Assembly: GCF_036917135.1 (NCBI RefSeq)
Contig: NZ_JBALEA010000089.1
Span: 47,974-111,973, forward strand
Origin: Nostoc sp.
Lineage (GTDB): Bacteria; Cyanobacteriota; Cyanobacteriia; Cyanobacteriales; Nostocaceae
Reading direction: 5' to 3'
DNA: 64,000 bases
Made by a program: the position numbers and the translations under genes. Within the stretch, counting starts at the first letter, position 1; every line of letters starts with the position of its first letter. Below the pieces are notes generated by a model. That model worked only from the letters and a program-made list of their open reading frames with translations. It was not told where the DNA came from and did no database searches. Shown here one piece after another: positions 4,489 to 15,027 of this stretch.

Positions 4489-5097
4489 CTATACCTTGTT
4501 ATCAGTCGAAATATCTAACTTGATCCCACCTTGCCGCAAAATCTGCCAATTGATCCCTGTCCATTTAGCAACGGTGGAAGGTACACCCATCCCCCGCATT
4601 TCACCTTGGCATTCTGTTGTTGCTAAAGTCAAAACCTGGGGAAACTGAGTCTGAATTTCTGCGATCGTTTGCAAAGGCGGTTGACCGGAAAAATTGGCGC
4701 TAGTGGTAGCAAGAGGGCCTGTTTGAGTCAGAATAGATTGAGCGATCGCACTGTTTGGGACTCGAATCCCAATTGTCGTTGGATCAATAGGGTTCATAAC
4801 TTTTGGCACGCGATCGCTTGCTGGTAAAACTAACGTCACCCCTCCTGGCCAATATTTATCTGTTAATTCTTGCCATATTTTATACTCGTTCTCATCACCT
4901 TTGACATAAGGCCACAAATCTCCAGCATTAGCAGCCATCAAAATCAAAGGTTTGTCTTGACTGCGTTGTTTAGCCGTAAAAATTAATCCGGCTTTTTCTG
5001 GTATCGCCGCAAGTGCAGGAACCGTATCCGTGGGAAAGCTCACCAAAAGGCCGGCCTGTGCGCCAGCTATTAGGTCTGTGAGGGAAACTTGCGTCAT
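4489..5097 (-). CDS. tsaC: L-threonylcarbamoyladenylate synthase (Sua5/YrdC)
   Basis: SFPTDTV, KQRSQDKPL, GIRVP, PLATTSANFSG motifs. Confidence 0.93.
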   Translation of the reverse strand: MTQVSLTDLIAGAQAGLLVSFPTDTVPALAAIPEKAGLIFTAKQRSQDKPLILMAANAGDLWPYVKGDENEYKIWQELTDKYWPGGVTLVLPASDRVPKVMNPIDPTTIGIRVPNSAIAQSILTQTGPLATTSANFSGQPPLQTIAEIQTQFPQVLTLATTECQGEMRGMGVPSTVAKWTGINWQILRQGGIKLDISTDNKV

Positions 5098-5174
5098 CTT
5101 ACTAAGTAAGTCGGGGAGAACAATTTAATATATATTTTGATTTGAGCTTAAATCAAATTCTTGCATAAGTTAGG

Positions 5175-5205
5175 CAAAAGGGAAAAGGAATCAAAATCCT
5201 TTCCC
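5175..5205 (-). terminator. Probable intrinsic terminator downstream of the cluster
   Basis: Minus strand reads GGGAAAGGA-loop-TCCTTTTCCC followed by TTTT. Confidence 0.55.
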
Positions 5206-5309
5206 CCATTTTTGCATAAATATATTTATGCAAGATGTCTAATATTTATCAACCAGTAGCACGGTATTTAATTACTTGGTTAAATCTTGAAAAAGAGATG
5301 CTCAAATAA

Positions 5310-5431
5310 GGGACTTCCAAATAAAAAAATATCCCAAAACTGACGCAAAAATCTTCTCTATTTCTCCTATCTCTGTGTTATCTGCGTCTCTGTGGTTCGT
5401 TCATTTGGATAATTTATTTCTTGAAAGTCCC
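5310..5431. mobile_element. MITE-like element, 122 bp, GGGACT...AGTCCC termini, 3-bp TAA target duplication
   Basis: Imperfect terminal inverted repeats gggacttccaaataaaaaaatatccc / tggataatttatttcttgaaagtccc; TAA at 5307-5309 and 5432-5434. Confidence 0.75.
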
Positions 5432-5468
5432 TAAGAGTCTTATACATCTTCCAAAATTTAGACTAAAA

Positions 5469-6428
5469 TCAGCTAGCAGTTTTTTTCGCTTCAATCATTC
5501 CGAGTGTGGGAACTTTAACATCCCAAGCTAAACCTAATACTTCCAGAGTGTGGATTAACCAGTACCCTAAATCAACTTGCCACCATTGCAACCCAAACTT
5601 TGCCGAGTTAGGAAAAGCATGATGATTATTATGCCATGCTTCTCCTCCTGTAGGAATTGCCAGCCAAACATTATTAGTACTCTGCTCACTACTATTGAAG
5701 GGGCGACTGCCATACAGATGACTAATGGAATTAATAGTCCAAGTTAAATGATGCACTACAAAAATTCGCACAAGTCCTCCCCACAAAAGTCCTTGCCATA
5801 TACCTATCCAAGTACCTGATAAAAGTCCTCCAAGAATAGCTGGAATCAAAAGACCTAAAAAGACCAGAACTAGGTATTGTTGGTTGACTTTTTTTATCAC
5901 AGGGTCTTGCAGCAAATCCTTCGCAAACACTGTAGAATTTGTGATTTCGCAGTTAAGCATCCAACCAATATGGCTATACCATATTCCGTTTAACCTTCCC
6001 CAAAATCCTCCTTGGTGAAGGTTGGGTGAATGAGTATCTCCTATCTGGTCACTGTATTGATGATGGCGCCTATGATTGCTCACCCAATTAATAACAGGTC
6101 CTTGAGCCGCCATAGAACCTAAGATAGCCAAACCAACTCGAACAGATGGGTGGGTTTTAAAAGTGCAGTGAGATAAAACCCGATGAAAACCTACAGTAAT
6201 CCCTCCGACCATAGTGAGAAACCAGAAGACCAAAAGCAATGCTAATTCCATGAGATTAATTCCAAAATCCCAAGCGAATTTGAGCGCTATCATTGTCCCG
6301 ATCAAAGGAATTATGATTGTGGCTATAGCAAAACGCCTTTGTACTTGTTGTAAGTAATCATTTTGGATTATTATCTTTGTTGTTTTACTTAAAGTCGCCA
6401 AACCATGACTTTGATTGTCTAACTGCAT
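5469..6428 (-). CDS. Membrane-bound fatty acyl desaturase A (delta-9-like fold, JamB-like context)
   Basis: His boxes HRVLSH, HRRHH, HNNHH; 319 aa; paralog of 8038-8997. Confidence 0.92.
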   Translation of the reverse strand: MQLDNQSHGLATLSKTTKIIIQNDYLQQVQRRFAIATIIIPLIGTMIALKFAWDFGINLMELALLLVFWFLTMVGGITVGFHRVLSHCTFKTHPSVRVGLAILGSMAAQGPVINWVSNHRRHHQYSDQIGDTHSPNLHQGGFWGRLNGIWYSHIGWMLNCEITNSTVFAKDLLQDPVIKKVNQQYLVLVFLGLLIPAILGGLLSGTWIGIWQGLLWGGLVRIFVVHHLTWTINSISHLYGSRPFNSSEQSTNNVWLAIPTGGEAWHNNHHAFPNSAKFGLQWWQVDLGYWLIHTLEVLGLAWDVKVPTLGMIEAKKTAS

Positions 6429-6484
6429 TAGGTTCTACATCCTCCTTAAATCTTGTCTTCACTATTAACTTCGTACCATTTGGC

Positions 6485-7720
6485 TTAGGTGTAAATGGTG
6501 AAGGGTGGGATTTGTTCGTTGAGTACCCAGTCACCAACTTCGTGGACTTTGTAAACAACTGGATCGTGCAGAGTATGAGTACGGACATTGCGCCAGAAGC
6601 GATCAAAGCGATATTTTGTCGCAGTAGCACGAGTTCCCATCACTTCAAAAATCTTGCTTGTCACTTCTAATGCCACTCGTGTAGTCAAGACTTTGGCAGT
6701 GCTAATAATAACAGCAGTTTCACCGCGTTCGGTGGCTGTCAGGTCTTCTCCCTTTTCCCAGGCAGATTGGAAGACCGAGTTGACATAATCAACATGGCTG
6801 ATGGTTGAAATCAAACTCACCCAGAGATTACCGTATTGCTCAATAATATAAGGATCTTTAGCTGCCGTGTGGGCAGGTGAAAAAATCCAGGGACGGCTTC
6901 CAGATAGTGTATATTGCTTGCCTTCCTCAAAGGCACCTAGTGCAATTCCCAGATAGAAATTGACAAAGACGGACTGGAAAGCAGGAGTTACCAATGAGGC
7001 AAAGGAGCTAGGCGCATCTTTAGAGTTAGGATTGCCCAGAATCTCATCTCGGTGAATCAAGACATTATTAAAAGTGACGCTACCGCTATCGGTTTGTCGC
7101 TGTCCAATGTAATCCCAATCGTCATTGAGAACCACTCCTTCTCGATGGGTGGGAACAATGGCAATGGGAAGATTCTCCACAGCTTCCCGATGCTTGGCAA
7201 CAATGCTAACGGGAAGATTCTCTACATATCCTCGCGCTGCTGTCACTACAATAATGTCGGAGCCAGTACTGCCTGTGGCAAAGTTTTTAGTACCATTGAG
7301 CCGGAAATTTTTTCCATCTGCTGTTAGCACCAATTTAGGATCTCGCGGATTAACAGCATCACCCCAAAACCAGTTGTTGCGAGTAGTTTCGCTGTAGAAT
7401 CGGGCTTTTTGTTCGGGAGTACCATTTAGTTCAGGGATGACAGAATTGACATAGTGGTATCCCAAAAGTTGACCAAGGGAGCCATCCGCTTTGGCAATTT
7501 CTCGTACAACTTTGAGGGCTGTAACCCAACTTTGACCAAATCCACCATATTGTTCTGGGATCAGGAGTTTAAGCAGACCACTTTCTCGCAGACGATTTAG
7601 TTCGGCAGTCGGACTACCACCTTTGGCATCCCGTTCGACTGCTGTTTTAGCAAACTCCTTTCCTAATGACGCAGCTAGAGCAATGTAGTCTTTTGTTTCT
7701 TGTAAGGTAGATAAAACCAT
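6485..7720 (-). CDS. Acyl-CoA dehydrogenase-fold flavin-dependent monooxygenase, DszC/SfnB type
   Basis: DDWDYIGQRQTDSGSV and C-terminal FDRFWRNVRTHTLHDP motifs typical of DszC/SfnB. Start set at ATG 7720 (GGAG 9 nt upstream); the ORF extends to 7735. Confidence 0.85.
   Translation of the reverse strand: MVLSTLQETKDYIALAASLGKEFAKTAVERDAKGGSPTAELNRLRESGLLKLLIPEQYGGFGQSWVTALKVVREIAKADGSLGQLLGYHYVNSVIPELNGTPEQKARFYSETTRNNWFWGDAVNPRDPKLVLTADGKNFRLNGTKNFATGSTGSDIIVVTAARGYVENLPVSIVAKHREAVENLPIAIVPTHREGVVLNDDWDYIGQRQTDSGSVTFNNVLIHRDEILGNPNSKDAPSSFASLVTPAFQSVFVNFYLGIALGAFEEGKQYTLSGSRPWIFSPAHTAAKDPYIIEQYGNLWVSLISTISHVDYVNSVFQSAWEKGEDLTATERGETAVIISTAKVLTTRVALEVTSKIFEVMGTRATATKYRFDRFWRNVRTHTLHDPVVYKVHEVGDWVLNEQIPPFTIYT
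7136..7225 (-). repeat. In-frame 2 x 45-bp tandem duplication inside the monooxygenase
   Basis: VENLPVSIVAKHREA / VENLPIAIVPTHREG, visible at DNA level. Confidence 0.9.
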
Positions 7721-7751
7721 TTTCAGCATCTCCATAAAATTCGTACTAAAA

Positions 7752-8012
7752 CTATTCGCTTAAATGTTGTGCAAGAGATGCGATCGTCGGGTAATCCCAA
7801 ACTAGCCTTAGCTCTAGCTCTTTTCCTAGCCAATCTGCTAAATCTCCGGTTAAAACCACCGCTACCGATGAATCTAAACCATAACGGGCAAAAGTGGTTT
7901 CTACATTTACTTCTTCGGGTTCGATTTCTAGCAAATCTGCTAGATAAGAAATCAACCATTCTTTGATTTCTGTAGTAGATACTTTCAAAGTTTCAGTTTT
8001 TTGAGAAAGCAT
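7752..8012 (-). CDS. Stand-alone acyl carrier protein
   Basis: YGLDS phosphopantetheine Ser motif, DYPTIASLAQHL C-terminus; GGAGG RBS upstream of ATG 8012; 86 aa. Confidence 0.93.
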   Translation of the reverse strand: MLSQKTETLKVSTTEIKEWLISYLADLLEIEPEEVNVETTFARYGLDSSVAVVLTGDLADWLGKELELRLVWDYPTIASLAQHLSE

Positions 8013-8037
8013 ACATCCTCCAAAATTTAGACTAAAA

Positions 8038-8997
8038 TCAGCTAGCAGTTTTTTTCGCTTCAATCATTCCGAGTGTGGGAACTTTAACATCCCAAGCTAA
8101 ACCTAATACTTCCAGAGTGCGGATTAACCAGTACCCTAAATCAACTTGCCACCATTGCAACCCAAACTTTGCTGAGTTAGGAAAAGCATGATGATTGTTA
8201 TGCCATCCTTCTCCTCCTGTAGAAATTGCCAGCCAAACATTATTAGTACTCTGTTCACTAGTATTCAAAGGGCGACTACCATACAGATGAACAATGGAGT
8301 TAAGACACCAAGTTAAATGATGGACTACAAAAATTCGCACAAGCCCTCCCCACAAAAATCCTTGCCCTACACCTATCCAAGTACCTGATAAAAGTCCTCC
8401 AAGAATAGCTGGAATCAAAAGACCTAAAAAAACGAAAATTAGGTATTGTTGATTGACTTTTTTCATCACAGGGTCTTGCAGCAAATCCTTCGCAAACACT
8501 GTAGTATTTGTGATTTCGCCGTTAAGTATCCAGCCAACATGGCTATGCCACATTCCCCTTAACTTTCCCCAAGATTCTCCTTGATAAAGGTTGGGTGAAT
8601 GAGTATCTCCTATCTGGTCGCTATATTGATGATGTCGTCTATGATTGCTCACCCAATTAATCACAGGGCCTTGAGCCGCCATAGAACCCAAGATAGCCAA
8701 AGCAACTCGCACAGATGGGTGGGTCTTAAAAGCACAGTGACATAAAAGCCGATGATTACCTACAGTCACCCCGCCAATCATTGTGAGAAACCAGAAAACC
8801 AAAAGCAGTTCTAATTCCATGAGATTAATTCCAAAATCCCAAGCGAATTTCAGCGCTATCAGTGTCCCGATCAAAGGAATAACGATCGTGGCTGCGGCTA
8901 ACCGCTTTTGTACTGTTTGTAAGTAATCATTTTTGATTGTGATTTTTGCTTCTTTAGTTGAAGTCAACAAAGAAGGATTTTGATTATTTAACTGCAT
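8038..8997 (-). CDS. Membrane-bound fatty acyl desaturase B (delta-9-like fold, JamB-like context)
   Basis: His boxes HRLLCH, HRRHH, HNNHH; 319 aa; directly upstream of the ACP. Confidence 0.92.
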   Translation of the reverse strand: MQLNNQNPSLLTSTKEAKITIKNDYLQTVQKRLAAATIVIPLIGTLIALKFAWDFGINLMELELLLVFWFLTMIGGVTVGNHRLLCHCAFKTHPSVRVALAILGSMAAQGPVINWVSNHRRHHQYSDQIGDTHSPNLYQGESWGKLRGMWHSHVGWILNGEITNTTVFAKDLLQDPVMKKVNQQYLIFVFLGLLIPAILGGLLSGTWIGVGQGFLWGGLVRIFVVHHLTWCLNSIVHLYGSRPLNTSEQSTNNVWLAISTGGEGWHNNHHAFPNSAKFGLQWWQVDLGYWLIRTLEVLGLAWDVKVPTLGMIEAKKTAS

Positions 8998-9029
8998 GAG
9001 CTTTTACATCCTCATTCAATCCTTTAAAA

Positions 9030-10637
9030 TTAGGCTTTTTTACAGAGATATTCATCCAGTTCATCTTCTTCTCCAGCTAAACCTTGCTCGATATCACCAA
9101 TTTTTTCGGCATACTGATTAATCAGACTTTCTACCTGATTAATATCTAGTAAAGTCTGAGCATAGATATTTCCTGTAAGAGCATTAGCTATCTTTGCCTG
9201 AAAATATTGTTGACCCCAATTTTCGACACGTTGTAATTCATCTGTCGGTTCACTTTGATATGACTTTTGTATGCAAGCAACCACAAATGCCCATGCAGCT
9301 ACATCACCCAATTTCTGGGATAATATTTTACTTAATTTCTTATTACTGTTCCCAGAGAGGTTTTTCTTTTTGAGGTAAGAAGCACAAGTTTCAGCCGTCT
9401 GTTGCAATTGTTCGCTGATTTTTGTCGCTCCCAAAAACTCATTAAGAGATGAAAAGACTTGAGGTGTTTGGTATAAAGTTAATAAACCCAAATGCATCTG
9501 TAAAGTTTCAGTTGGCCCCTCAAAAATCCGAAATAAACGAGCATCCCGTAAGATTTGGGGCGCAATATTAGATTCGATATAACCCCGTCCACCTAGTAGC
9601 TGAACTAGATTATCTGCTGCTTGCCACATTAATTCGGGGGCGATAATCTTAGCGACAAGATAAGCTTCTAAAGGAACAGGTTTCTCTTCATCTAGGGATG
9701 TTGCAATGGTTTTCACCAAGCACTCAACTGCACCAATTGCTGCTGTTAAATCACTCAGACGTTGTAAAGTAATCTGTTGATTTATTAGCCGTTCTATACC
9801 AATTGAGCGACGGGTAGCATAACGAAGCATGAGTTGGGCACAATGTTTCATTCCGCCAATACAGGTGGCAGAAATTCCCAATCTCGCTAGTTGCATTGCG
9901 TCCTGGGCTACTTCAAAACCAGAACCAATTTCGCCTAAAACATTTTCATGATTGACTTTTACCTGCTCAAGGTGAATAGTATTCTGAACCATACCTCGCA
10001 TTCCCATCGTCAGAGCTTCAGTACCTTGCCTCAATCCTTGAGCATTTTCGGGAATGGTAAATGCTGTGATTCCCAAAGAGTCGCCTTGTTCATCTACAAC
10101 ATGAGCAAAAATATTGATCGCGCTTGACCAAGATGCAGAACCGCTCCAAATTTTGGTGCCGCTAAGTAACCACCCACCACTTCCATCTGGATGGGCTTCA
10201 GCCTTGATTCCTCTAGGATTAGATCCGGCAGATGGTTCGGTAATGGCAAAGGCTGCTAAATCTCTCCCTTGGGCTAAATTCTGGAGATAGGTTTCTTTAA
10301 TCTCAGGTGTACCATGCTTAAGAATTGGGTAGATTCCGAGAAAATTGTTTACACCAACAAATGAAGCTAAGTTGAGATCAATAGCTGCAAGTTGTTCCAT
10401 CACTTGCAACATATCACTGTAACTTAAGCCAAGACCCCCGCATGATTGAGGCACAATCATTCCCAACAAACCTTTTTTGCCAAAGTCTAGAACGACGTGA
10501 GGAGTTATACACCGTCGCTCGTCCATAAGTCTAGAATTGATTCGTCTTTGGGCATAGTCACGTAACCAATGGATGACTTGCTCTGCACGTTGACGACTTG
10601 AACTTTCTAAAGACTGACTTTGACTATTGAACTGCAT
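9030..10637 (-). CDS. Acyl-CoA/acyl-ACP dehydrogenase
   Basis: AFAITEPSAGSN, LSGTKIWSGS, QLLGGRGY, RIFEGPTE (catalytic Glu position); extended C-terminus. Confidence 0.9.
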   Translation of the reverse strand: MQFNSQSQSLESSSRQRAEQVIHWLRDYAQRRINSRLMDERRCITPHVVLDFGKKGLLGMIVPQSCGGLGLSYSDMLQVMEQLAAIDLNLASFVGVNNFLGIYPILKHGTPEIKETYLQNLAQGRDLAAFAITEPSAGSNPRGIKAEAHPDGSGGWLLSGTKIWSGSASWSSAINIFAHVVDEQGDSLGITAFTIPENAQGLRQGTEALTMGMRGMVQNTIHLEQVKVNHENVLGEIGSGFEVAQDAMQLARLGISATCIGGMKHCAQLMLRYATRRSIGIERLINQQITLQRLSDLTAAIGAVECLVKTIATSLDEEKPVPLEAYLVAKIIAPELMWQAADNLVQLLGGRGYIESNIAPQILRDARLFRIFEGPTETLQMHLGLLTLYQTPQVFSSLNEFLGATKISEQLQQTAETCASYLKKKNLSGNSNKKLSKILSQKLGDVAAWAFVVACIQKSYQSEPTDELQRVENWGQQYFQAKIANALTGNIYAQTLLDINQVESLINQYAEKIGDIEQGLAGEEDELDEYLCKKA

Positions 10638-12489
10638 TAGCTTTTGCGCCCTCCTGAATATTTACTTTTTGAGAATCAGGATTATCTTGCTGCACTTTTA
10701 CTAAGAGTGAGTTGACATCAACTTCCAACTTGTGAAACTGGGCTTGATGCTGAAGAGTTCCACTACAGTGCGCCACCACATTCAAACTGCCATCTAGAAA
10801 CCCACGCCGACAGGCATGACGCTGAATTTTCCCGCTAGATGTCTTGGGAATACTCCCAGGTTTAATTAAAACTGTGGCATACACTTGTAAACCGTGATTA
10901 TCTACAACTGCTTCAGTGATATTGCCGACGACTTCTTGAATATCCAACCGCCTTAAATAGGTTCGTTCTACCTCTTGAACAACAATTAATCGCTGTTGTC
11001 CCTTCTGATCTACAGTGAAAGCTGCTCCACAATGCGATCGCAATGCTGGATGACTTTTTTGCACTGTTAACTCAATATCCTGGGGATAATGATTTTGTCC
11101 TCGGATGATAATCACATCTTTTAGTCGTCCGGTAACAAATAGTTCGCCATCTTGCAAAAATCCCAAGTCACCCGTGCAAAGAAACGGCCCTTCTCCTGTA
11201 TCCCCCAGATAACTTTGAAAAGTTTCCGCAGTTTTTTCTGGTTGGTTCCAATAGCCACCAGCCACAGAAGAACCTGATACCCAAATCTCTCCCACCTTCC
11301 CAGGAGGACACTGAGTTAAAGATTCGCGATCGACAATGACGATTTTTTCATCTAACCAGGTGCGACCACAGCCCACAATTGTTTTAGTTCCTTCCCCAGA
11401 TTCAGCCGCCACCACCTGATTTTCCTCAAGGGCTGCTGCTTCAACTTGGTACAGAATCGGCGAAGCTGTTTTTAAACCTCCAGAAACGAATAAAGTTGCC
11501 TCAGCCATCCCGTAACAGGGATAAAATGCTTCTCGACGGAAACCACAAGGAGCGAAATAGTTAGCAAATAGCTCCATTGTCTCGGCACGGACTGGTTCGG
11601 CTCCATTGAAAGCGACTTCCCAACTGCTTAAATCAAGACTAGAAAGCTGTTCGGGAGTAATCTTGCGAACGCACAAATCGTAAGCAAAATCTGGCCCGCC
11701 GCTAGTAGTGGCTTTGTAACGAGAAATAGCTTGCAACCAGGAAAAAGGCTTTTGCAGGAAAGCTACTGGTGACATCAAAATAGACGGGATACCCAAATAT
11801 AGAGGCTGCAAAACGTTCCCAATCAGACCCATATCGTGGAATAAGGGTAACCAACCGACAAAAATTGTTTTATCTGTATGTCCGAAACCCATTCTGATGG
11901 ATCTCTGGTTGCACAGTAAATTTCCATGAGTGATCATCACTCCCTTCGGCGTTCCCGTAGAGCCTGAAGTGTATTGCAGAAATGCCAGAGTGTCTCTCTC
12001 TAGTCTTGGTTTTTGCCAATCTGAACTGAGATTGCTGTCAATGCAATCAGTATTTAACCAGCGCATAGTTGCCAATTCTGGATTTTCGACCGTTAACAAA
12101 GATTTTGTGGTCAAGACTATCTTGGCTTGGGCATCTTTAGCGATCGCCTGCAACCTGAGCAAGTTCATATTGGCTCGGGGTGGATAAGCGGGAACGGCGA
12201 TAACACCCGCATATAAACAGCCAAAGAAGGCGCTAATGAATTCTAATCCCGGTGGATACAACAGCAAAGCCCGTTCGCCAGGAGATACTAGAGACTGAAG
12301 ATGGGTAGCGAGCGATCGCGCTTGCAGGTCTAATTCTCCATAAGTCAGGCTGTTTTCTTCAGTTTCTCCATCTTTGAGAAATATATAAGCCCTTTGCTGA
12401 GGCTGATTTTTAGCTCTGTAGCTGAGTAATTCTATTAAATTTGAAAATTTGTCAAGAGGGTTTTGGAGATCAGCCAAACAAATAGTCAT
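10624..12489 (-). CDS. Fatty acyl-AMP ligase (FAAL)
   Basis: LQYTSGSTGTPKGV, WLPLFHDMGLIG, YPCYGMAEATL followed by the FAAL-type insertion, GRLKDVIIIRG, PKTSSGKIQR. Confidence 0.93.
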   Translation of the reverse strand: MTICLADLQNPLDKFSNLIELLSYRAKNQPQQRAYIFLKDGETEENSLTYGELDLQARSLATHLQSLVSPGERALLLYPPGLEFISAFFGCLYAGVIAVPAYPPRANMNLLRLQAIAKDAQAKIVLTTKSLLTVENPELATMRWLNTDCIDSNLSSDWQKPRLERDTLAFLQYTSGSTGTPKGVMITHGNLLCNQRSIRMGFGHTDKTIFVGWLPLFHDMGLIGNVLQPLYLGIPSILMSPVAFLQKPFSWLQAISRYKATTSGGPDFAYDLCVRKITPEQLSSLDLSSWEVAFNGAEPVRAETMELFANYFAPCGFRREAFYPCYGMAEATLFVSGGLKTASPILYQVEAAALEENQVVAAESGEGTKTIVGCGRTWLDEKIVIVDRESLTQCPPGKVGEIWVSGSSVAGGYWNQPEKTAETFQSYLGDTGEGPFLCTGDLGFLQDGELFVTGRLKDVIIIRGQNHYPQDIELTVQKSHPALRSHCGAAFTVDQKGQQRLIVVQEVERTYLRRLDIQEVVGNITEAVVDNHGLQVYATVLIKPGSIPKTSSGKIQRHACRRGFLDGSLNVVAHCSGTLQHQAQFHKLEVDVNSLLVKVQQDNPDSQKVNIQEGAKANAVQ

Positions 12490-12579
12490 AAGCCAATTTC
12501 ACAGTTTACACAGTAACGTCATCTGTATGTATGGGTTTGTCAGCTACGAGTCTGTCAATAAATAATTGATAAATTCCCT

Positions 12580-12606
12580 GTAGAGACGGCGATTTTTCGC
12601 GTCTCT
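12580..12606. repeat. GTAG-type REP-like hairpin between the AOS and FAAL genes
   Basis: gtagagacggcgatttttcgcgtctct: GTAG start, stem agagac/gtctct with inner gcga/tcgc. Confidence 0.6.
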
Positions 12607-12621
12607 CTAACCGTCAACGAT

Positions 12622-13986
12622 TTATCGAATGATGCCTAATTCACGATCCAATTTTTGGAAAACGTGAATAAATGTATCTAAATCTTCACGTGTATGGGTT
12701 GCCATGACACTGATTCGGAGTCTTTGGGCATTGAGGGGAACAGCAGGGTACTCGACCGAATTCACAAAGATGCCTTCTTGGTGAAATCTCCAGGCAAGAG
12801 TGCGAATTTCGACTTCAGACGGGATTCTCACTGGTATAATTGCAGAGTCGCTGCTGGTTTGGAATCCTGCCGCTTGCAGTTGCTGCAATAAGTAAGTGCT
12901 ATTGGCTCGAAGTTGACTAACACGCTCCGGCTCCCGCTCAATGATATCTAGACCTGCCAAGATAGCCGCAACAACAGGAGCAGGCAAAGATGCCGAGAAC
13001 ATATAAGACCGAGCAAAGAAGCGCAGATACTCGATTACCTCACGACTGGCAGCGATGAAGCCGCCTGTGACACCCAATGCCTTACTGAAAGTCCCCATCG
13101 TGACATCAATTCGACCTTTCAGACCAAAGTGTTCATCAGTGCCACCGCCCTTTTTACCCATAACACCAGTGCCGTGTGCATCATCCACGACAAGAATAGC
13201 CCCGTAATCGTCGCAAAGTTCACGAATTGCTGGGAGTGCAGCTAAATCGCCATCCATCGAATATACGCCTTCTATAGCCACATAGATTAATCGATTTGAT
13301 GCTCCTCCAACTTGCTTGCATTTGATCAGACGCTGTTCGAGGTCATCACAATCATTATGCTTGAAGCTAAAAGCGCGAACGCTGGAACCCATAGAGACAA
13401 GCTTAATGGCATCATAAAGACTGGCATGGCTTAACTCGTCGCAGATTAAAACATCATCATCACGTAACAGACCATTAACCCACCCTAACTGTGCCTGAAA
13501 TCCACTGGCAAAAAGGAGAGCATCTTCTGCGCCTTTGAACTGGGCTATACGAGCTTCAAGTTGGCGATGGAGGCTACTCATGCCATTGAGTAGAGGTGGT
13601 CCACCCATACCAACACCAAATTCTTCAATAGCTCGTTTTGCTGCTTCTCGAACATAGGGATGGGTGGTCAATCCCAGGTAGTTATTTGATCCGAACATCA
13701 GCATTGACCTGATTTCACCAGTGAGCGGATCTTTAATCAGAGTTCGATTTTCAATCGGCCCAACGACCTCACGAGGAAAATAGGTGAGCATACAGGCATT
13801 GGGACCGATAGAGGCATTTGGTGTATGCAACCAATTAGAGCAAGGTTTCACGCGCTCCGCTAAGGATGAACCAATCGTTGGGAAAAAATCTTTGAAGGAA
13901 AAATTCTCGGCATGGCTGCTGGTATCCGGTGCAACCCATATATTCCTAACATCTTCTGGGAATTTATTAGTCTGTTTACTTAACAT
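12622..13986 (-). CDS. PLP-dependent alpha-oxoamine synthase (serine palmitoyltransferase/BioF/KBL family)
   Basis: MFGSNNYLGL, SHASL, EGVYSMDGD, DDAHG, GTFSKALG (Schiff-base Lys); long N-terminal extension. Confidence 0.92.
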   Translation of the reverse strand: MLSKQTNKFPEDVRNIWVAPDTSSHAENFSFKDFFPTIGSSLAERVKPCSNWLHTPNASIGPNACMLTYFPREVVGPIENRTLIKDPLTGEIRSMLMFGSNNYLGLTTHPYVREAAKRAIEEFGVGMGGPPLLNGMSSLHRQLEARIAQFKGAEDALLFASGFQAQLGWVNGLLRDDDVLICDELSHASLYDAIKLVSMGSSVRAFSFKHNDCDDLEQRLIKCKQVGGASNRLIYVAIEGVYSMDGDLAALPAIRELCDDYGAILVVDDAHGTGVMGKKGGGTDEHFGLKGRIDVTMGTFSKALGVTGGFIAASREVIEYLRFFARSYMFSASLPAPVVAAILAGLDIIEREPERVSQLRANSTYLLQQLQAAGFQTSSDSAIIPVRIPSEVEIRTLAWRFHQEGIFVNSVEYPAVPLNAQRLRISVMATHTREDLDTFIHVFQKLDRELGIIR

Positions 13987-14052
13987 TGTGAACTCTAACC
14001 TAGATTTATTTCTCTGTTTTTAGCAAAGCAAACTAACCGCTTAAGTCTTTTA

Positions 14053-14175
14053 GGGACTTCCAAGAAATAAATTATTCATCTTGTGGGGTGGGCATCCTGC
14101 CCGCCCTGAATATAGGACGGGTGAGGACACCCATCCCACAAGAAAATTTGGGATGTTTTTTTATTTGGAAGTCCC
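14053..14175. mobile_element. MITE-like element, 123 bp, same ends as 5310-5431 but in opposite orientation, TTA target duplication
   Basis: gggacttccaagaaataaatt ... ttttttatttggaagtccc; TTA at 14050-14052 and 14176-14178. Confidence 0.8.
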
Positions 14176-15027
14176 TTAAGCAATAGACCTCTTGTGTGAA
14201 TCAGATTATGAACTGCTCAACAGATAAGTCGCTAGTTTGTGAGTATGCATTTTTTCTAATAGTCAATCGCACAGTTTCATTGCATTTTTTTCACAAAATC
14301 TATATCTACTTTATTGGTGAAGACATTGAGAATAGCAAGCAGTTTTTATCTGAGTAAAGGCTCTCTTAAGACTTTTTTGTGTTTTTTATATGCAGTACTT
14401 TAAAAAGTACTCGCACACCAAGAAAACTGCTCAAAATGATTTCACTAAAGAATGGAAATTAGCAAATAAATATCATCAATTACTTTTTATGTAGAGCAAT
14501 CTTATTTGAAGTGTGAGCATCCTAAAATCAGAGAAAATCAACATTTTCTCGGTTTTTATAAAGCATTTAAGATTGCTGTGTAATATTAATCTAACGAGGA
14601 GTACCAGTTGGCCAATATTGTAACCAATTTTCAACTTTAAACATGATTTTAGCTGGAAGAGAAGACATACAAATAGAAAAGCCCTTCTCTAGTGAAAGAT
14701 TAAGCACTAAAAGTTTTTCCTCTGATCTAAACGTATCAATATCTAAATCTTTTTGGATGTGTTGGAAATCTGGATTAGAGTGAATTTTCAATCCGAGATT
14801 AAAGCTACCACTATTTAGATTTTGTTGTCAATCAACAAAAGCTAAATAAAATGAGTTAAACAAGATGTTTAGATAAAAATATATAGGTAGATATAGATAC
14901 AGAATCTCACTAGATATATCACAAGCACATAAGTTGTTACGACAAATTGCCGATGCAATTGATAATATTAGAGTGATATTGGAATAGCTAAAACAGATGG
15001 AGATAGCCAAATTGAGTAAGGGAAACC

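Follow-up and report, generated by a model that had tools for sequence, protein, structure and literature searches.

A DszC/MsuC-lineage flavin monooxygenase recruited once from a cyanobacterial sulfur-scavenging operon into a mobile lipid cluster of Nostoc

The closest described relatives of the enzyme considered here are the dibenzothiophene monooxygenases DszC and TdsC and the methanesulfinate monooxygenase MsuC (PDB 3x0x, 5xb8 and 6u76), flavin-dependent enzymes of a type with which bacteria ordinarily remove sulfur from organic molecules. They share with it a three-domain acyl-CoA dehydrogenase (ACAD) fold, an RTHxLHD histidine motif and the lack of a reductase domain; identity over the structural alignment is 42–43%, with TM-scores of 0.85–0.86. 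A comparable history is that of XiaF of the xiamycin pathway, a group D flavin monooxygenase with catabolic relatives that was recruited into a natural-product cluster and is served by unlinked or foreign reductases; unlike the enzyme described below, it belongs to an indole-oxygenase subclade and an actinomycete terpenoid pathway, and its substrate is known (PMC5481743). ChmG (chalkophomycin) and the sugar N-oxygenases KijD3, ORF36 and DnmZ are also ACAD-fold oxygenases of biosynthetic clusters, and ChmG, which has a true ACAD and a carrier protein as neighbours, N-oxygenates a carrier-bound amine (PMC10849742). The parts combined in the core of the present cluster are those of JamABC-type cassettes, with a fatty acyl-AMP ligase (FAAL), desaturase and acyl carrier protein (ACP), and of bacterial Spt–ACP–acyl-ACP synthetase modules. 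In the literature searched, no description was found of a JamABC-type or Spt cassette with a DszC-lineage oxygenase, and no paper was found on this cluster, in which FAAL and desaturase genes accompany an alpha-oxoamine synthase (AOS). Two published systems were compared with it and set aside: the noc pathway of nocuolin A has a fused FAAL–ACP (NocH) and a ketosynthase (PMC11837247), neither of which is present here, and Npun_R3567 (PMC8895605) is a different AOS that lies outside any ACP operon.

The window, a stretch of 64,000 nucleotides from Nostoc sp., contains a tight operon on the minus strand with the gene order AOS, FAAL, ACAD, desaturase B, ACP, monooxygenase and desaturase A, so that the monooxygenase is the sixth gene. 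The operon starts with the pyridoxal phosphate-dependent (PLP) AOS (12622–13986), followed by the FAAL (10624–12489), a 535-aa acyl-CoA/ACP dehydrogenase (9030–10637), the 319-aa desaturase B (8038–8997) and the 86-aa ACP (7752–8012), which has a GLDSS phosphopantetheine site and is 76% identical to the PP-binding product on the metagenome contig L001. These five are core genes of the cluster. Desaturase A (5469–6428; 319 aa), a variable accessory gene found only in monooxygenase-bearing clusters, begins after a gap of 56 nt. The placement of the monooxygenase between an ACP and desaturase A, as given in the preliminary description, is therefore retained with these coordinates. From the stop codon of the ACP gene, it is 16 nt to a possible ATG at 7735 and 31 nt to another at 7720, which leaves no room for a promoter; a promoter and terminator scan of 5000–14600 returned fewer sites than shuffled sequence and was uninformative. 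A 78-aa open reading frame (ORF) at 7723–7959, also on the minus strand, was considered as the ACP and rejected, as it has no Pfam match and is in a frame other than that of the GLDSS-bearing ACP; it gives conserved tblastn matches because the underlying DNA is conserved.

The other large ORFs scanned with Pfam, a selection of those in the window, are housekeeping genes (SecDF, Tic22, methyltransferase, Sua5, PsaF/L, TsaD, GOGAT, EF-G/Tu and RNases, for example) or have no match. Among them, no SfnB-, DszA- or SsuD-type partner, sulfonate transport gene or TauD was found, in agreement with the earlier observation that no sulfur genes are adjacent. A further difference from DszC and MsuC is that the window enzyme belongs to a lipid cluster from which DszA/B, MsuD/E and transporter genes are absent.

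The frame of the monooxygenase gene (6485–7735, minus strand) is free of stop codons over 416 codons and encodes 416 aa from the ATG at 7735 or 411 aa from that at 7720. The latter start, used in the preliminary description, has a GGAG upstream at a spacing of 9 nt and gives the same length as the public homolog P0002, which is 95% identical. Pfam assigns the ACAD N, middle and C2 domains (PF02771, PF02770 and PF08028), with a weak match to PF00441 and no reductase domain. In a search against SfnB, DszC and ACAD models, which had been proposed as a check, the NCBIfam DszC model has the top score, 385 bits, followed by SfnB with 281 bits, and the equivalog cut-offs of both are missed (NF043015, 850 bits; TIGR04022, 430.9 bits); the family-level ranking thus stands and an equivalog assignment does not. 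Among PDB sequences, the best matches are MsuC (E = 1.4e-101), DszC (4e-101), TdsC (9e-95) and MAB_4123 (5.5e-73), and all others, true ACADs included, have E-values of 1e-14 or worse. The ACAD-fold N-oxygenases KijD3, ORF36 and DnmZ match at 3e-7 to 1e-4 and by sequence do not form a clade with the window enzyme; its likeness to ChmG and these only distantly related N-oxygenases is one of possible function, not of membership. An AlphaFold 2 (AF2) model built from a 41-row alignment (pLDDT 83.6, pTM 0.87) is most similar in Foldseek to DszC and MsuC (0.86 to 3x0y), and true ACAD structures reach a TM-score of about 0.73 at 17–20% identity, so that the protein is not a true acyl-CoA or acyl-ACP dehydrogenase. 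These data show that it is a member of the DszC/MsuC/TdsC lineage of group D two-component flavin monooxygenases, and the initial designation of 6485–7720 as a DszC/SfnB-type monooxygenase is upheld by the intact frame, the matches near 1e-101 and the structural similarity. A complex prediction with two copies of the monooxygenase and the ACP scored 0.00 and gave no answer.

Homologs of the monooxygenase fall into three bands of identity: 83–95% (P0002–P0004), 55–78% (clade A) and about 50% (clade B). The paralogs in the same genome are two clade B enzymes with 51% identity, at C35:75664 and C91:149181, and an SfnB-like protein with 31%; no further clade A copy is present in this genome. Both clade B genes are surrounded by those of luciferase-type monooxygenases, NMT1-type binding proteins and OprB porins. 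Where the contigs of clade A members are readable (P0020, P0023, P0021, P0022 and P0008), the gene always has that of an SfnB-like ACAD on one side and that of a 453-aa luciferase-type (DszA-like) monooxygenase on the other, and sulfonate-type ABC parts, TauD and nitroreductase or FMN_red genes are often near these triads; P0035 is solitary. The closest relative that lacks the insertion described below, P0006 (75% identity), has a DszA-like gene 21 nt behind it that is 89% identical to the corresponding gene of L046. Identity of the window enzyme to the clade A triad enzymes (P0020 and P0023 of Leptolyngbya sp. NK1-12, P0021, P0008 and P0006) is 63–78%. A maximum-likelihood tree of 72 rows, with the SfnB-like paralog as its root, unites all ten cluster-borne sequences in a single clade (SH-aLRT 100) that lies deep within clade A and whose stem measures 0.12 changes per site. 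Since the cluster-borne copies are one clade nested in the sulfur-triad clade, the recruitment happened once; the gene is shown to have passed from a cyanobacterial sulfur-scavenging triad into the lipid cluster.

The catalytic region of the enzyme has changed little since this transfer. The motif RFWRNVRTHTLHDP (residues 379–392; 6560–6601, minus strand) contains two histidines, H387 and H390 (RTHTLHDP), which align with H388 and H391 of DszC and are invariant in the cluster clade. In DszC, these are the catalytic histidine pair; S163, the serine near flavin N5, was compared as well, together with His92 and Tyr96. The position of S163 is occupied by T154, a conservative replacement, that of Y96 by Y93 and that of H92 by Q89 in the printed alignment. 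The glutamine that distinguishes the window enzyme from DszC is common to all 45 clade A enzymes from sulfur operons, and the catalytic and pocket columns examined, including Q89, T154, H387 and H390, are the same as in clade A. Of the columns without variation in clade A, only three have changed in the cluster clade, A272G, A345S and N402D, the triad enzymes retaining A272, A345 and N402. Seven further fixed changes, at Q12, N104, T118, E187, P190, F253 and K293, all fall at variable columns.

The structural mark of the cluster clade is an in-frame tandem duplication of 45 bp (7138–7226, minus strand; 2.0 copies, 81% match) encoding VENLPVSIVAKHREA and VENLPIAIVPTHREG. The resulting insertion of 14–15 residues is found in every cluster-borne copy, including the most divergent ones (P0003 and P0004), and is absent from clade A, triad enzymes included, and from clade B; it also sets the window enzyme apart from DszC, TdsC and MsuC. 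All cluster-borne sequences are united by this marker. The second repeat copy aligns with the ancestral strand and the first is the extra one, modelled as a surface loop of the beta-domain at low confidence (residues 172–185, pLDDT < 50); it evolves at a rate somewhat above that of the second. None of the eight genomes with the gene has a broken frame, and the duplication is in frame in each copy. Pairwise dN/dS among clade members is 0.08–0.29, which indicates purifying selection on the gene. In G362 (L034), both repeat copies have Lys and Leu at sites that elsewhere are Asn and Val in either copy, and the two copies within that gene are identical at 41 of 45 nt; this suggests gene conversion between them. 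With a nearly unchanged pocket, three changes at invariant columns and a stem of 0.12, the sequence gives no clear sign that the substrate is a new one, and the activity of its ancestors on small organosulfur compounds may persist.

The distribution of the cluster was surveyed in 389 species genomes of the family, using 14–20 kb around each locus and tblastn with the window proteins. Orthologs of the monooxygenase with at least 89% identity occur in eight genomes (G000, G264, G253, G197, G236, G258, G362 and G283) and orthologs of the AOS in 12, namely these eight and G260, G180, G209 and G321; G283 and G321 are too fragmented for a whole-cluster reading. The preliminary description had proposed co-occurrence in other genomes as a check and absence from all homologous clusters, along with independent induction by sulfur limitation, as what would speak against it. 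The monooxygenase gene is present in 8 of the 11 contiguous clusters (L048–L050 counted as one) and missing from three. Its place directly behind the ACP is kept in G264, G253, G197, G236, G258, G362, L001 and L048–50, across three flanking contexts. In the family genomes, wherever both flanks were fetched, the island lies between Tic22–methyltransferase and Sua5–HisKA; the 14-kb stretch of G362 shows neither flank. The same seven-gene order is found on metagenome contigs in two further neighbourhoods, on L001 next to AbiEi/AbiEii and CHAT/caspase genes, with a degraded ACAD, and on L048–50 beside a DUF433/DUF5615 pair and a glycosyltransferase. The island is thus mobile and occupies different genomic sites.

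Its constant core is AOS–FAAL–ACAD–desaturase B–ACP, and its tail is variable. The tail lacks both the monooxygenase and desaturase A in G260, G180 and G209, consists of the monooxygenase only in G197 and G258, and contains both genes in G000, G264, G253 and G362; in G236, these two are joined by another ACP and by a third desaturase. In the three genomes without the gene the core is intact, and no remnants of the monooxygenase were found at E ≤ 1. In a concatenated core-gene tree, the monooxygenase-bearing L001 and G362 are the deepest branches and the clusters without it are nested, G180 with G209 and G260 as the sister of G236, so that at least two losses have taken place, provided that the root is at the most divergent row. 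The monooxygenase tree has the same shape as the core-gene tree. The gene is thereby shown to be an optional, dispensable member of the cluster that is co-inherited with the core genes. Taken with its descent as one clade from within the organosulfur-operon enzymes and its co-inheritance in three genomic settings, this substantiates the earlier suggestion that the enzyme had been recruited. Distant AOS homologs (51–54% identity) in other cyanobacterial families are accompanied by a FAAL, with or without an ACP, and by no desaturase or DszC-like gene, and therefore give no hint of the substrate.

Several further features of individual islands were noted. In G253 (L030, 13681–15746), the FAAL ortholog aligns as aa 1–156 and 145–621, about 146 nt apart, and may be interrupted by an insertion or frameshift. 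On L001 (5728–6080), only short remnants of the 535-aa ACAD are left while the monooxygenase and both desaturases are kept, and a seemingly similar truncation is visible in G321 (L042, 3535–3782), where aa 1–52 of the ACAD are followed by the C-terminus of the ACP. The second ACP in the extended tail of G236 (L032, 11606–14324) is 91% identical to the window ACP, and the third desaturase there is only 48–50% identical to the other two. In G209 (L041, 4873–9419), ORFs of 1315 and 167 aa on the opposite strand take the place of the monooxygenase and desaturase A. A remnant of the N-terminus of an ACP (aa 1–28, 61% identical) lies behind desaturase A on L034 (2072–2149), which fits a derivation of desaturase A from a duplicated desaturase–ACP unit. 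Residues 59–61 of the ACP, after helix II, are GNW or GNL in the three clusters without the monooxygenase, ADW in most clusters with it and GSW in L001, a weak and imperfect correlation. Near-identical island DNA comes mainly from metagenomes of lichens and mosses, an indication that its carriers are symbiotic Nostoc. The metatranscriptome contigs X18 and X19 (moss/plant), apparently one data set filed twice, contain a 93–95% relative, the monooxygenase included, from libraries that may contain DNA; one 2159-bp skipping joint in them rests on 25 letters on one side and was disregarded.

The statement of the preliminary description that no flavin reductase is encoded in the window was borne out and can be widened: PF01613, PF03358, PF00881, PF00175 and PF02525 have matches elsewhere in the genome and none on the whole contig C89. 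Small FMN_red ORFs are located at C63:8146, C35:15417, C31:160402 and C23:401610. The six PF01613 matches (C69, C90 and C91) are the C-terminal parts of ORFs of 576–606 aa in three adjacent pairs; these are proteins of flavodiiron size and not free flavin reductases. XiaF is active with E. coli Fre and unrelated reductases and has been discussed as a possible orphan oxygenase fed by reductases of central metabolism (PMC5481743), and in Acinetobacter at least eight monooxygenases are served by a single MsuE (PMC13352529). An unlinked reductase is ordinary in the light of these precedents and because the genome's two sulfur-context paralogs of clade B likewise have no reductase adjacent to them. 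As a notable trait of this locus, the missing reductase was overstated.

We consider it probable, at about 0.65, that the gene encodes a functional two-component oxygenase of the DszC/MsuC lineage that was detached once from the sulfur triad and is now an optional tailoring enzyme of the island's amino-lipid. The gene left an operon with SfnB-like, DszC-like and DszA-like members in a single event and was inserted directly behind the ACP of the mobile AOS–FAAL–ACAD–desaturase–ACP island, with which it would be co-transcribed. Reduced FMN or FAD would be supplied by an unlinked NAD(P)H:flavin reductase, presumably of the housekeeping FMN_red type, for which the ORFs at C63:8146, C35:15417 and C31:160402 are candidates. 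In the predicted pathway, the FAAL loads a fatty acid onto the ACP, the ACAD and the desaturase or desaturases unsaturate the chain, and the AOS forms an alpha-aminoketone by condensing the acyl chain with an amino acid. A flavin C4a-hydroperoxide formed in the monooxygenase would then transfer one oxygen atom to a nucleophile, which could be the new primary amine, the side-chain sulfur of a Cys- or Met-like amino acid, or an enol or alkene carbon. The products of strains with and without the gene would be expected to differ by one or two oxygen atoms.

A different role would be that of a passenger which still oxidises thioethers, sulfoxides or sulfinates for organosulfur scavenging and does not act on the island lipid. 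The active-site columns are nearly those of the sulfur-operon clade A, the three clusters without the gene could be read in this way, and enzymes of the family are promiscuous, accepting various small sulfur compounds (PMC13352529). It is nevertheless an improbable role, as both conserved triad partners, SfnB-like and DszA-like, have been lost and no other clade A copy is left in the genome; an S-oxygenase alone, without a C–S-cleaving partner, frees no sulfur. The fixed position of the gene 16–31 nt behind the ACP in three settings and its co-divergence with the core genes likewise tie it to the island. Still far less credible is a decaying, functionless remnant, which would account for the absence from three clusters and for an internal duplication modelled as a disordered loop, but is at odds with a frame intact in eight genomes, dN/dS values of 0.08–0.29, an invariant catalytic motif and a duplication that is in frame in all copies.

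The substrate could also be the ACP-bound acyl chain, the enzyme either epoxidising or hydroxylating the double bond made by desaturase B or the ACAD, or standing in as an oxidase for part of the work of the 535-aa ACAD and so preparing the substrate for desaturase A. This would suit the location of the gene directly behind the ACP, and ChmG is an ACAD-fold oxygenase able to use carrier-bound substrates (PMC10849742). Desaturase A is seen only alongside the monooxygenase (none of the three clusters without the gene has it), and L001 keeps the monooxygenase despite its degraded ACAD, but G197 and G258 have the monooxygenase without desaturase A. To our knowledge, the flavin hydroperoxides of this lineage carry out heteroatom and aromatic oxygenation and do not attack unactivated chains. 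In a hand alignment, moreover, Asp391 stands, as in DszC, at the position of the catalytic base, where we take the ACAD consensus to be Glu. Oxygenation of the acyl chain on the ACP is accordingly regarded as unlikely, but it is a serious alternative in view of the restriction of desaturase A to clusters with the gene.

We therefore return to a tailoring enzyme that probably acts on the cluster product, with a nucleophilic heteroatom or an electron-rich carbon as the acceptor. Heteroatom oxygenation of the released product is the option that we favour, in view of the chemistry of the lineage and of precedents among ACAD-fold N-oxygenases such as ChmG (PMC10849742). The primary amine of the AOS alpha-aminoketone is put forward tentatively as the acceptor, at clearly less than even odds. 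An enol or alkene carbon is a more doubtful candidate, and a sulfur atom, which would require the AOS to use a sulfur amino acid, a somewhat less probable one again. It is also doubtful, if conceivable, that an S-oxidiser of the DszC lineage has become the N- (or S-) oxygenase of a fatty amino-ketone with an active site almost unchanged beyond the 15-residue duplicated strand.

The enzyme is of a known kind, and no new kind of system is revealed. The locus represents a clean and datable case of a nutrient-scavenging enzyme captured by a secondary-metabolite cluster, in which the type of donor operon is identified, one structural marker, the 45-bp duplication, is available and natural knock-outs exist. 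These make two questions directly testable: how little change a DszC-type oxygenase needs in order to accept a new substrate, and what the orphan AOS–FAAL–desaturase island of lichen- and moss-associated Nostoc produces. If the proposed conversion into an oxygenase of the fatty amino-ketone is true, island-bearing symbiotic Nostoc would make an unsaturated lipid with a hydroxylamine, oxime, nitro or sulfoxide group, a class not yet described, and a matched pair for finding that lipid would be available in natural strains that have or lack the gene.
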